This document shows, piece after piece, positions 17,991-58,559 of a DNA stretch of 64,000 bases; within the stretch, counting starts at the first letter, position 1, and every line of letters begins with the position of its first letter. The stretch lies in the IMG/VR virus record IMGVR_UViG_3300023202_000142, positions 96,001-160,000 of that record, one strand, 5' to 3'. The notes beneath the pieces are model-generated. The model was not told the origin of the DNA, made no database searches, and was given only the letters and a program-made list of their open reading frames with translations. A program made the position numbers and the translations under genes. This stretch comes from a virus.

Positions 17991-19511
17991 GTGAATAACG
18001 TGATGCACGAGGCGAGAGGCGTCGACCCGGGTGGTCGCAACCTCCAGGACCTCGGATATATCCAACAGCTCACTGAGAAGTGGAGTCCGTATCTGGGCAT
18101 GATCCCGGAATCAAATTCGGCGTTCGACACGCGCAGGGCCTCGATGGCCATGCTGCTGGAGAACACCTGGAACGACATCCTGTCGACGGCAGGTCGTCGG
18201 TCCGCACAGCACCTCAACGAGGCTGACGCCTCGGTGACCGGCGCCATCGCGGACTACACCCAGACCATCTTCCCCGTCCTGATGAGGGTCTTCCCGAACC
18301 TCATCGCGCATGAGCTGGTAAGCATCCAGCCCATGGCGGGTCCCGTCGGTGCCGTGTTCTACTTCGAGTACAAGCACGCGACGCAGAAGGGTCGGGTCCA
18401 GGTCAACGACAACCTCATCGAGACGTTCGATGAGCACTACAGCTCGGAGTTCATCGACAACGAGCTGGTCGCGAACGGAAACGGGACCGATTTCGGTGGC
18501 GGTGGTGCCGCCCTGTCGGCGACGCTGACGTTCACGCCGGTTCTGCCGCTGAACACCAACGTCAGTGATCCGCAGATTCGCGTGCGAATCGTGGAGATCG
18601 ACAACACCGGCGCTGAGGTCCAGGAGGCCATCGACGACGGTGCCGGTGGGTTCACCGGGGATGTCAGTGCGGGGTCCATCGACTACACGACGGGCGCCAT
18701 CACGGGCTTCCTGTTCACGGCCGCTCCCGCAGCGACCAGTGAGGTCGCCGCGTTCTACTTCTACGACTCGGAGAACAACGAGCAGGTGCCCAGGGTCACT
18801 CTGGACATCCAGCTCAACGAGATTCGTGCGAAGACGCGCAAGCTGAACATCGAGTGGAGCGCAGAAGCTGCCGACGACCTCCGTGCCCTTCACGGCATCG
18901 AGGGCGAGGGTCAGCTTCTCGCTGGTGTTTCGAACGAAATCGGGCTGGAAATCGACCGCGAAATCCTTCGGGACATCGAGTCGAACGTCAGCATCACCGA
19001 CACGTTCAATCGCACCGGTGCCCCCAGCGGCATCAACGAGCTGGACTACCTGCGCACGCTGCTCACGAAAATCACGACCATCGGGTCGAAGATTCACAAG
19101 AACAGCAAGCGCGCGCCGGCCAACTGGCTGGTCACGTCGCCCGAGGTCGCCGCGCTCTTCGCGCAGTTCCAGGGCCACGGAGACTTCGTGCCGGCCGCCC
19201 CGACTGAGGAGCGCCCTTCGTCGTACGGCAACATCACGTCGGACTACGGCATCTTCCGGTACGGCAACCTGATGCAGCGCTACGCTGTCTACCAGGACCC
19301 GTTCATCACGGACTCCACGGTACTCATCGGCCTCAAGGGCCGTTCGTATCTGGATGCAGGCTACGTGTACGCTCCGTACATCCCCCTGCAGATGACACCA
19401 ACCTTCCTCGACCCCGCAGACCAGTCGTACAAGAAGGGTCTTCGGACGAGGTACGCGAAGAAGCTGCTTCGCTCGTCGTTCTACGGCAAGGTCACCGTCC
19501 AGAACCTGTGA
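17991..19511 (+). CDS. Major capsid protein, T4 gp23-like, with ~105-aa insertion
   Basis: VSIQPMAGPVGAVFYF, KTRKL..WS.EAADDL..HG, EIGLEIDREIL, GYVYAPYIPL, GLRTRYA. Confidence 0.97.
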   Translation: MNNVMHEARGVDPGGRNLQDLGYIQQLTEKWSPYLGMIPESNSAFDTRRASMAMLLENTWNDILSTAGRRSAQHLNEADASVTGAIADYTQTIFPVLMRVFPNLIAHELVSIQPMAGPVGAVFYFEYKHATQKGRVQVNDNLIETFDEHYSSEFIDNELVANGNGTDFGGGGAALSATLTFTPVLPLNTNVSDPQIRVRIVEIDNTGAEVQEAIDDGAGGFTGDVSAGSIDYTTGAITGFLFTAAPAATSEVAAFYFYDSENNEQVPRVTLDIQLNEIRAKTRKLNIEWSAEAADDLRALHGIEGEGQLLAGVSNEIGLEIDREILRDIESNVSITDTFNRTGAPSGINELDYLRTLLTKITTIGSKIHKNSKRAPANWLVTSPEVAALFAQFQGHGDFVPAAPTEERPSSYGNITSDYGIFRYGNLMQRYAVYQDPFITDSTVLIGLKGRSYLDAGYVYAPYIPLQMTPTFLDPADQSYKKGLRTRYAKKLLRSSFYGKVTVQNL

Positions 19512-19542
19512 GCCTGTTGCCCCGGGCGGGGCATTGATAATG

Positions 19543-19559
19543 TGTGCACGGATTGCACA
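19543..19559. promoter_or_regulatory. Perfect operator copy TGTGCA-CGGAT-TGCACA
   Basis: Intergenic palindrome; TG-A-TAATGT extended -10 at 19535-19543 on +, TTGACA at 19566-19561 on -. Confidence 0.65.
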
Positions 19560-19686
19560 TTGTCAAGCCCCGGGGGCCAGGTTTCACCCATAGTCTGCAA
19601 TCCGGCAGACGTACCGACTCAGACTCGTTGTTGCCTCTGGCGCCACGATGTCCGAGACTTGGGAGGGCTAACCGCCCTCCCTTTTT
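19549..19686 (+). ncRNA. Candidate small structured RNA downstream of the capsid gene
   Basis: 9-bp stem CGGATTGCA/TGCAATCCG, long hairpin 19618-19656, ends in an intrinsic terminator. Confidence 0.45.
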
Positions 19687-19690
19687 CTTT
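19661..19690 (+). terminator. Rho-independent terminator
   Basis: GGGAGGGC-TAACC-GCCCTCCC followed by TTTTTCTTT. Confidence 0.9.
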
Positions 19691-19702
19691 GCAGGAGCAC
19701 AC

Positions 19703-20284
19703 ATGAAGAACCGATTGCGTCTACGCCGTGACCAGTCGGGCCAGGTGTTTCTCGGCAGTTACGAGTACAACCAGCCCGAGCGCATCAGCCTGACCCAGGA
19801 CCAGCCCTTCGTCGATGAAGCGTTGCGGGCCAAGGGGTTCACGGCCGAGGAAATCGAAGAGCAGATGGAGGGGTACGAGATTTACGTCCCCCAGATCCTC
19901 GCCAGGGTGCCGCAGCCCGTTCCGGCTTCGGACCTCGCAGCCGAACTGCAGGCTGCGGTCTCTGACCCCGAGCCTGACCCTGAACCGGAGGACCTCGCGG
20001 AAGAGACCGAGGACCCGGCCGAAGAGGATGACGAGGACGACGAGGACGATGTGGCGCCAGAGGACATCGCGGATGACCCCGAGGAGCTTCAGGTCGACGA
20101 CTTCAATGATGTCCAGGTGCCGCCGGTGTCGGAGATCAAAGAGATGACGCGCGACGATCTCGCGGGGCTTGCCGAGCGGCTGGGGGTCGAGAATGAAATC
20201 GAGGGTACCGGTGCAAACGGGTACGTCACTGTGCCTGATCTCAGGCGTTTTCTGATTCCGTACGTCGCGGAACTTCGAGACTGA
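19703..20284 (+). CDS. Acidic-linker protein with small C-terminal helical module (start reassigned from 19544)
   Basis: AGGAG RBS; D/E/P linker; C-terminal DDLAGLAERLGV..EGTGANGYVTVPDL resembling E3-binding/HeH-type modules. Confidence 0.75.
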   Translation: MKNRLRLRRDQSGQVFLGSYEYNQPERISLTQDQPFVDEALRAKGFTAEEIEEQMEGYEIYVPQILARVPQPVPASDLAAELQAAVSDPEPDPEPEDLAEETEDPAEEDDEDDEDDVAPEDIADDPEELQVDDFNDVQVPPVSEIKEMTRDDLAGLAERLGVENEIEGTGANGYVTVPDLRRFLIPYVAELRD

Positions 20285-37897: not shown

Positions 37898-38247
37898 TGA
37901 CGATTCAGCGGTTTTTGCGACTCGTTGAGGACGAGGGCTTCGAGATCGAAACGCGTGCTGTCGGTGATGGCTGTCGCACCAGGGTCGGTGACGCGGTTCT
38001 TTACTACGGTGACGATGGTTTTCGGTTTGCGATTCGCGAGGGGCGGCGCATCACGTCCCTGGAGCGCGTTGTGGAGGGCCTTGGGTTCTCCGAGCGCGGG
38101 TTGCTGACGGAGGCCGTAGCAACGACTACGGCCAACGTGGCAGCCTACCAGGTTCCTCTTGGGACTCGTGTCGACGACTTCATCAACCGTTACGGCGACG
38201 AGGGAGACGATGATGGGCCTGCCCATCTGATGAAGCGGAAGTTCTGA
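37894..38247 (+). CDS. Hypothetical protein
   Basis: ATGA overlap with tube 2 stop. Confidence 0.6.
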   Translation: MMTIQRFLRLVEDEGFEIETRAVGDGCRTRVGDAVLYYGDDGFRFAIREGRRITSLERVVEGLGFSERGLLTEAVATTTANVAAYQVPLGTRVDDFINRYGDEGDDDGPAHLMKRKF

Positions 38248-38261
38248 GCACGAATTGCACA
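38245..38261. promoter_or_regulatory. Operator copy TGAGCA-CGAAT-TGCACA
   Basis: 1 mismatch to consensus; ends 5 nt upstream of TTGACA. Confidence 0.6.
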
Positions 38262-38266
38262 GTGCG

Positions 38267-38295
38267 TTGACAGTCGATTGCGGCGGTGAAATACT
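38267..38295 (+). promoter_or_regulatory. Sigma70-type promoter upstream of the tail chaperone gene
   Basis: TTGACA-17 bp-AATACT with TGn extension. Confidence 0.7.
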
Positions 38296-57755: not shown

Positions 57756-58205
57756 ATGTACCTCGCTGTAGTAGACATATCGACATTGACGCAATTGTTC
57801 GCGGAGCAGGGGCCCCTTGCGATTGTCGCGGTCATCCTGACGTTTCTCGTGACGAAGTTCGTTGACTTCGTTATCGACAGGCGCTCGAAGGCTGTAGATC
57901 AGAACCTTATCGAGGGCACAACGATTCGTGCCGAGTTGCGCGAGGAGGTGGTGCAGCTCAAGCAGGACATCAAAGAACTGTCTGAGGAGGTCGACATTTG
58001 GCGGGAGAAGTATCTTGAGGTCCGGGATGACCTGGGGGTCACGAAGGTCACGCTGCACGCTGCGAGCGAAGAGTCGAGGATGTTGCGTCAAAAGTTGGTC
58101 GAGGTCGTCGAGGTCACGGAGGGCCAGGGCATTCACCTCGGCGTTTCTATTCGGCCGCTCATTGATTCAATCGAAGGCTCTATTGTGGATGGATCTGACA
58201 GTTGA
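57756..58205 (+). CDS. Putative holin or lysis accessory (one TM helix plus coiled coil)
   Basis: GPLAIVAVILTFLVTKFV then heptad region; upstream of endolysin. Confidence 0.55.
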   Translation: MYLAVVDISTLTQLFAEQGPLAIVAVILTFLVTKFVDFVIDRRSKAVDQNLIEGTTIRAELREEVVQLKQDIKELSEEVDIWREKYLEVRDDLGVTKVTLHAASEESRMLRQKLVEVVEVTEGQGIHLGVSIRPLIDSIEGSIVDGSDS

Positions 58206-58230
58206 CAGTGCTGATCGATGTGCACATAAT
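58202..58230 (+). promoter_or_regulatory. Near-consensus sigma70 promoter for HTH gene and endolysin
   Basis: TTGACA-17 bp-CATAAT. Confidence 0.85.
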
Positions 58231-58235
58231 GCACC
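58219..58235. promoter_or_regulatory. Operator copy TGTGCA-CATAA-TGCACC overlapping the -10
   Basis: 1 mismatch to consensus. Confidence 0.65.
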
Positions 58236-58283
58236 AATCCGCAAGCCCCGGCGGAATTCTATACGACGCAGGAGAGTGTTCGA

Positions 58284-58559
58284 ATGAACTTTCACGGTAT
58301 TGAGGAAGACCCGCTGCCGCCGAAGACTGTGTGGGCGGTCCGTAAGGCGATGGGTCTTTCGCAGGAAGCCTTCGGTGAAGAGGTCGGAGTGACGCGACGC
58401 ACCGTCATTTCGTGGGAAAAGGATCCACCGGACAACAAGTACGCCCGTGCGTGCACGGGGCCGGCAAGGATTCTGATCCAGAACCACGCCGCCAAGATCA
58501 AGGACATCGATCCCGAAATGCAATCGCTCCTGCAGGAGCATGGGCTCCTTGCCGCCTGA
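58284..58559 (+). CDS. XRE/Cro-family helix-turn-helix regulator
   Basis: VRKAMGLSQEAFGEEVGVTRRTVISWE; AGGAG RBS. Confidence 0.9.
   Translation: MNFHGIEEDPLPPKTVWAVRKAMGLSQEAFGEEVGVTRRTVISWEKDPPDNKYARACTGPARILIQNHAAKIKDIDPEMQSLLQEHGLLAA

Follow-up and report, generated by a model that had tools for sequence, protein, structure and literature searches.

Immediately behind the major capsid gene of this uncultured T4-like phage lies an inverted, orphan copy of a promoter cassette that is present in 26 copies across the genome. The perfect dyad read as the operator of a sense small RNA in the first-pass annotation belongs to this copy, and we hold with modest confidence that the copy acts as an early promoter, likely giving an early RNA antisense to the 3' end of the capsid gene. 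The record is a 185,324-bp IMG/VR virus genome with a GC content of ~59%. The window, i.e., the whole stretch of 64,000 nt that was analyzed, covers its bases 96001-160000 and carries nearly all of its genes on the plus strand. Coordinates below are those of the window unless marked as genome coordinates.

The candidate element occupies a 191-nt gap between two genes, in the gene order prohead protease, capsid, 193-aa gene, with an adaptor-like gene also downstream of the capsid gene. Across the capsid 3' end, the closest relative found, locus L027, is 83% identical at the DNA level and 94% at the protein level, and its homologue of the 193-aa gene has a start codon that aligns with the one here. 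The isolated-phage collection contains no DNA relative (best capsid protein identity 34%), and a metagenome scan with the capsid protein returned nothing above 50% identity. A whole-genome scan for the T4-type late promoter TATAAATA found none. The features of the gap and its flanking genes are the following:

17991..19511, plus strand: major capsid gene, Gp23-type (PF07068 Gp23, 3.6e-63; phrog_138, 2.5e-61)
19509-19511, plus strand: stop codon TGA of the capsid gene
19515..19528, no strand: left copy of the direct repeat TGTTGCCyCkGGCG at the left insert junction, 12/14 identical to 19629-19642
19520..19533, no strand: GC hairpin GCCCCGGGCGGGGC, on the minus strand the would-be 5' end of the antisense RNA, retaining the leader-loop string CCCCGCC
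19534..19566, minus strand: core of the putative orphan early promoter (family PWM score 49.2; 10/12 to sigma-70)
19566-19561, minus strand: -35 element TTGACA of this core
19559-19543, minus strand: dyad of this core
19542-19537, minus strand: -10 element CATTAT of this core
near 19533-19530, minus strand: predicted start of the orphan promoter, reading leftwards
19534-19563, plus strand: TTGATA-18-CATTGT (8/12), under the promoter-scan threshold
19535..19543, plus strand: extended -10 TGATAATGT, the complement of the minus-strand -10 region
19567..19577, no strand: second flanking GC hairpin GCCCCGGGGGC
19593..19610, plus strand: hairpin GTCTGC-AATCCG-GCAGAC, a degenerate, opposite-oriented copy of the dyad, with TGCAATCCG common to both
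19618..19656, plus strand: imperfect hairpin across the right insert junction, not kept in the same form in L027
19629..19642, no strand: right copy of the direct repeat, where homology to L027 resumes
19661..19690, plus strand: intrinsic terminator GGGAGGGC-TAACC-GCCCTCCC followed by TTTTTCTTT
19693..20284, plus strand: downstream gene of 193 aa without a family match (Shine-Dalgarno AGGAG, ATG at 19703)

The individual elements from which a sense small RNA had been proposed are all present in the DNA. The extended -10 TGATAATGT lies at 19535-19543 and the operator at 19543-19559 reads as the perfect dyad TGTGCA-CGGAT-TGCACA, while CGGATTGCA (19549-19557) and TGCAATCCG (19596-19604) form a perfect 9-bp inverted repeat with which a hairpin competes by pairing GTCTGC (19593-19598) with GCAGAC (19605-19610). 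The long hairpin at 19618-19656 is seen in minimum-energy folds and the plus-strand intrinsic terminator has its stem at 19661-19681 and a T-run up to 19690. On the minus strand, TTGACA-18-CATTAT runs from 19566 to 19537 and agrees with the sigma-70 consensus at 10 of 12 positions. The proposed 135-nt RNA has no credible ORF, i.e., none of at least 30 aa except for implausible GTG frames.

A search of the genome against itself with the gap returned two further copies of its centre, and pattern and PWM scans then delineated a family of 26 copies, each with a PWM score of at least 28, between genome positions 3157 and 182338. Their consensus, cTTGAC-N3-GTGCAc-N3-GTGCACA-TAtTGt, places a GTGCAC dyad in the spacer of a sigma-70-type promoter, between its -35 and -10. 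Apart from the gap copy, 24 of 25 have either a gene (23) or a tRNA-Gln (one) directly downstream, and one weak copy has an ORF 248 nt downstream. A leader stem-loop followed by GGAGGTAGC-N1-5-ATG accompanies 21 of these 25 copies, and two have a different Shine-Dalgarno sequence plus ATG. The orientation from TTGAC to TATTGT equals the local gene direction at family copies throughout. The leader stems vary, yet still pair (GGGAGAG/CTCTCCC, GGGAAGG/CCTTCCC, GGGGCGG/CCGCCCC and others), whereas the loops retain ACCCC(G/A) and the Shine-Dalgarno context GGAGGTAGC is fixed. Late-gene Shine-Dalgarno contexts such as AGGAGCACA differ from this early context. Since the family copies serve small unknown genes, they are presumably early promoters. 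They also account for 12 of the 14 distinct sites in the genome that agree with the sigma-70 consensus at 10 or more of 12 positions.

The right half-site GTGCAC is kept in 24 of the 26 copies regardless of the left half-site, and no compensation between half-sites occurs. Because the half-sites are conserved in sequence and uncompensated, the dyad is more likely a putative protein-binding site than a hairpin. In exact-pattern scans of viral contigs the full motif was never hit, a shorter one had 21 isolated hits of the kind expected by chance, and the motif was not found in the contigs of L027 and L004. The family copy at genome 180707 had been considered as a second orphan and was rejected, as it drives a tRNA-Gln(CTG) located ~50 nt downstream behind a GC-rich leader (L003:1374-1447; genome 180546-180619, minus strand).

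Two further sites carry elements of this kind. At genome 89160-89495, which lies 6.5 kb ahead of the window, a structured region of ~300 nt with a strong terminator at its end is preceded by a family-type promoter. This region contains GCTACCTCC, the complement of the shared Shine-Dalgarno sequence, and GGGGTA, the complement of the leader loop. The gap copy has no leader tag and is thus not a target of an RNA from 89.2-89.5 kb. At window positions 38245-38290, a degenerate dyad TGAGCAC-GAAT-TGCACA is followed by plus-strand TTGACA-17-AATACT (10/12), within the 38-nt gap before a baseplate-hub-like gene at 38286.

In the gap, the family signature is carried by the minus strand. The copy ranks eighth of 26 by PWM score and retains every high-information family position, and no plus-strand score there exceeds 18. 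The core TTGAC-N3-GTGcA-N4-GTGCACA-nAnT is found with family spacing on the minus strand at 19566-19534, and the family spacings, with 2 nt separating the -35 from the dyad and 4 nt separating the dyad from TGTCA/TATCA, fit the gap copy in minus orientation only. Its nearest paralogue, at genome 52910, is 94% identical over 31 nt. Outside the early blocks it is the sole minus-strand site that reaches 10/12. The -10 ends 26 nt past the capsid stop codon, which places the predicted start ~20 nt past the stop.

What follows this promoter in the other copies is gone. Instead of a leader stem-loop with an ACCCC(G/A) loop only TGCCCCGCC is left, folded as GCCCC-GCCC-GGGGC and missing the 5' arm of the leader. 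Beyond the -10 comes TGCCCCGCCCGGGGC, a remnant of the leader-loop string refolded into a small hairpin, followed by sequence complementary to the stop codon and coding region of the capsid gene. Downstream on the minus strand there is no Shine-Dalgarno sequence, ATG or tRNA, and no ORF of at least 30 aa within the first ~290 nt. With both the leader stem-loop and the Shine-Dalgarno sequence plus gene missing, the gap copy is, as judged from its sequence, an orphan promoter core and not a full cassette.

The full family signature being present on the minus strand only, leftward transcription is the most likely activity of this core. Transcription from about 19532 would yield an RNA that is not translated and that is complementary to the capsid gene at its 3' end. 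The orphan promoter would fire early in infection, together with the other family copies, and a factor binding the dyad could shut off the orphan and the other copies together. A convergent promoter immediately downstream of the capsid gene is the arrangement expected of a cis-antisense RNA of the oop type. In phage lambda, oop is a discrete 77-nt RNA that is transcribed from pO, has its own terminator and has a known effect on cII. The predicted RNA resembles oop in arising from a convergent promoter just past a gene, in being untranslated and in its complementarity to the 3' end of that gene. Unlike oop, it has no evident terminator on the minus strand, it would target a late structural gene and it is a prediction only. 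Downstream of the orphan promoter, the minus strand offers no convincing terminator: two weak 5-bp stems with short T-runs, at 19118-19103 and 19088-19075, lie within the capsid gene 415-460 nt away, so that a discrete antisense RNA cannot be defined; a hairpin at 19472-19455 is without a U-tract. Within 19075-19118, L027, where the promoter is missing, has both the stem CGACC/GGTCG and the run TGATTTTCG disrupted, although this may be chance.

The comparison with L027 shows how the copy is placed. Behind the stop codon, the alignment of the two sequences breaks off at TGTTG; it resumes with TGTTGCC at 19629 and carries on past the terminator region into the next gene. Between the TGTTGCCyCkGGCG direct repeats, a segment of ~110 nt (about 19520-19628) is specific to the window. 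At the same place, L027 has ~390 nt (L027:514-905) with a strong terminator and a Lys/Cys-rich gene of 105 aa, of which a homologue with 53% identity is located at genome 170480-170758, ~250 nt downstream of a weak family copy. Removal of either insert leaves a compact gap of ~80 nt, like that of more distant relatives. With two relatives bearing different inserts at the same junctions, the capsid/neck junction is, on these alignments, an insertion hot spot. For the right part of the insert (19567-19660), no paralogues were found beyond chance words. Scans of 16 related loci found no sigma-70-like minus-strand promoter behind the capsid gene in any of them, so the arrangement lacks conservation and may be a neutral scar of recent origin. 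A palindrome behind the capsid gene of L008, TCCCAAC-N-GTTGGGA, was considered as an analogous inverted cassette and rejected, as it is no commoner than the control.

On the plus strand, the conserved element is the terminator. It consists of an 8-bp stem with seven GC pairs and a loop of five, followed by TTTTTCTTT. An intrinsic terminator separates the capsid gene from the next gene in most of the related loci read, L027 included, and its position is kept. From its sequence and position, the structure at 19661-19690 is the terminator at which the capsid message stops, and it holds down read-through to the neck gene. The idea of an attenuator for the neck genes thus holds in this ordinary sense. 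Between the terminator and the 193-aa gene there is too little space for a separate promoter. By the same reading of the sequence, the plus-strand region is the 3' tail of the capsid message. A GC stem with a U-tract ahead of the next ribosome-binding site is the usual post-capsid terminator of tailed phages, and what is unusual compared to other phages is the ~110 nt of foreign sequence between the capsid stop and this terminator.

The reading proposed at the outset, a sense RNA of ~135 nt that starts from TGATAATGT at 19549-19550, is controlled by the dyad, alternates between two folds and ends at the terminator, appears quite improbable to us. It has in its favor that a TGnTAnnnT element is present at the correct spacing, that a strong terminator lies downstream and no ORF intervenes, that its two folds lie within 2 kcal/mol of each other and that family-type promoters drive non-coding RNAs elsewhere (the tRNA-Gln; the RNA at 89.2-89.5 kb). 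Yet this promoter has no -35, and its -10 is the mirror of the minus-strand -10; TGnTAnnnT as such occurs 50 times in the 185-kb genome, and no family copy is organized in this way. The other plus-strand candidate besides TGnTAATGT without a -35, TTGATA-18-CATTGT at 8/12, likewise mirrors the minus-strand promoter. The folding evidence does not point to the plus strand either: the fold z-score of the gap against shuffles is -4.9 on the plus and -4.6 on the minus strand, and such near-equal values indicate that the signal stems from DNA palindromes and is not informative on the transcribed strand. Among 1000 shuffles of the gap that preserve dinucleotides, 28 contain a perfect inverted repeat of at least 9 bp (p about 0.03), and the fold containing the 9-bp stem lies 2 kcal/mol above the minimum free energy for an RNA starting at 19549 and 6 kcal/mol above it within the full 3'UTR. 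This stem is the promoter's own spacer paired with the degenerate second dyad at 19593-19610, which matches the spacer of the copy at genome 52910 at 17 of 18 aligned bases, plus one gap. An Rfam search of 19000-20200 with E up to 10 gave sub-threshold noise (best score 17.8 bits, gathering threshold 50). The 5' two-thirds of the proposed RNA (19520-19628) are absent from L027, the hairpin at 19618-19656 is not kept there and none of the other related loci read has a counterpart. The expectation that the structure would recur behind the capsid genes of relatives is thus borne out for the terminator and for nothing else, and with no -35, no Rfam family and a segment missing in L027, the headline claim finds no support. 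The divergent sense/antisense pair, put forward as another option, has real support in its minus-strand half, which is a full member of the 26-copy family on that strand alone.

The remaining explanations differ in what the promoter copy does. It might be a silent scar, left recently when cassettes were shuffled at an insertion hot spot, with any transcript from it inconsequential, in which case the plus strand would merely gain extra hairpins in the capsid 3'UTR and the terminator would do the regulatory work. We regard this as somewhat unlikely, though deserving serious consideration: the segment is missing in the closest relative, which has a different insert at the same junctions, no relative scanned has a comparable antisense promoter, the 94% identity to the paralogue suggests a recent origin, and leader tag, gene and minus-strand terminator are all lacking. 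However, all informative promoter positions are intact while the leader and the Shine-Dalgarno-ATG are gone, a pattern that selection for the promoter or operator would equally give, and it is improbable that a strong promoter converging on the most heavily transcribed late gene would be wholly without effect. The favored antisense reading has to face the same lack of conservation, as well as the suboptimal 18-nt spacer and the near-palindromic nature of the element, which gives the plus strand its own TTGATA-18-CATTGT (8/12) and TGnTAATGT. From this symmetry a two-way promoter may be conceived, in which one dyad repressor controls the antisense RNA and a sense RNA of ~120 nt running from near 19570 (TTGATA-18-CATTGT) to the terminator. 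The layout of -35, 18 nt and -10 is indeed present on both strands, a GC hairpin opens both predicted 5' ends (19520-19533, 19567-19577), and CATTGT serves as the -10 in working family copies, e.g., that of the tRNA-Gln promoter. Against it, the plus-strand match of 8/12 is under the scan threshold, the register from half-site to -10 is off that of the family by 2 nt and the arrangement is not conserved in relatives, so we give it as low a probability as the sense RNA proposed at the outset. Replication at T4 ori(34) and ori(uvsY) is primed by the R-loop of a promoter transcript, and a gene-less promoter within a late-gene block would fit the same role, its non-coding transcript forming an R-loop from which DNA replication is primed. 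This seems extremely improbable here, as the promoter is followed by a GC hairpin and then by coding sequence of 62% GC instead of an AT-rich unwinding stretch, and the cumulative GC skew, whose extremes lie at 26 kb and 184 kb, shows no inflection at 115.5 kb.

A candidate for the dyad-binding factor is encoded within the window. It is a 91-aa Xre-type HTH protein (58284-58559; PF01381, 28.7 bits) whose gene adjoins the endolysin gene. This gene has its own plus-strand promoter, TTGACA-17-CATAAT (11/12), 53 nt upstream (region 58202-58559), and a dyad TGTGCAC-ATAA-TGCAC overlies the -10 of that promoter. The HTH protein is thus a candidate autoregulated repressor for the GTGCAC dyads of the family. 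The site at 58206-58283 had also been considered as a dead minus-strand family copy, which was rejected in favor of the plus-strand promoter of the HTH gene. A wider, improbable proposal joins these elements into a repressor-controlled two-way promoter: an early antisense RNA would restrain the capsid gene, a sense RNA of ~120-140 nt would be ended by the capsid terminator and the dyad protein, possibly this HTH protein, would silence both, plus the other 25 copies. If this were true, one operator code would time the early genes and release the capsid gene.

The preferred reading, an inverted orphan of an early-promoter family, has its closest published parallel in the PeSL (promoter-early stem-loop) cassettes of the T4-type phages RB49/phi1, PST and nt-1. 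These consist of a sigma-70-like early promoter with a stem-loop mostly between the -35 and -10, and a role in insertions and deletions and in modular shuffling has been attributed to them (Arbiol et al. 2010, PMC2839356; Comeau et al. 2014, PMC4122927). Their published description also includes measured promoter and terminator activity (PMC2839356). The family described here is similar in that many copies combine a sigma-70-like promoter containing a dyad or stem-loop with a subsequent Shine-Dalgarno sequence and ATG, that copies cluster among small variable genes and that they mark insertion or replacement differences between close relatives, as with the inserts of the window and L027 at the TGTTG junctions. 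It differs from PeSLs in that the half-sites are conserved in sequence without compensation, resembling a protein-binding site rather than a terminator hairpin, and in that the majority of copies also carry a covarying leader stem-loop (loop ACCCC) and the fixed GGAGGTAGC. Moreover, the gap copy is inverted, gene-less and situated inside a conserved structural block, and there is no sequence similarity to published PeSLs. The element in the gap is best described as a PeSL-like orphan promoter, from which an early antisense RNA is probably made.

Antisense RNAs over late structural genes, mainly early ones, have been detected by RNA-seq in Pseudomonas phage PAK_P3, where their proposed role is to keep late genes from leaky expression; no link was made between their promoters and a repeated cassette (PMC4933390). 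In that virulent myovirus the RNA is observed, whereas here the promoter is defined by its sequence and the RNA is predicted.

In summary, the proposed novel riboregulator gives way to a simpler reading, in which a mobile promoter cassette landed backwards in the tail of the capsid message. The significance of this is modest unless a regulated antisense or two-way RNA exists. In phages with observed antisense RNAs over structural genes, the promoters are not linked to any repeated cassette. If the orphan promoter fires, the antisense RNA over a late structural gene would be traceable to a defined, repeated and probably repressor-controlled promoter in an uncultured T4-like phage.
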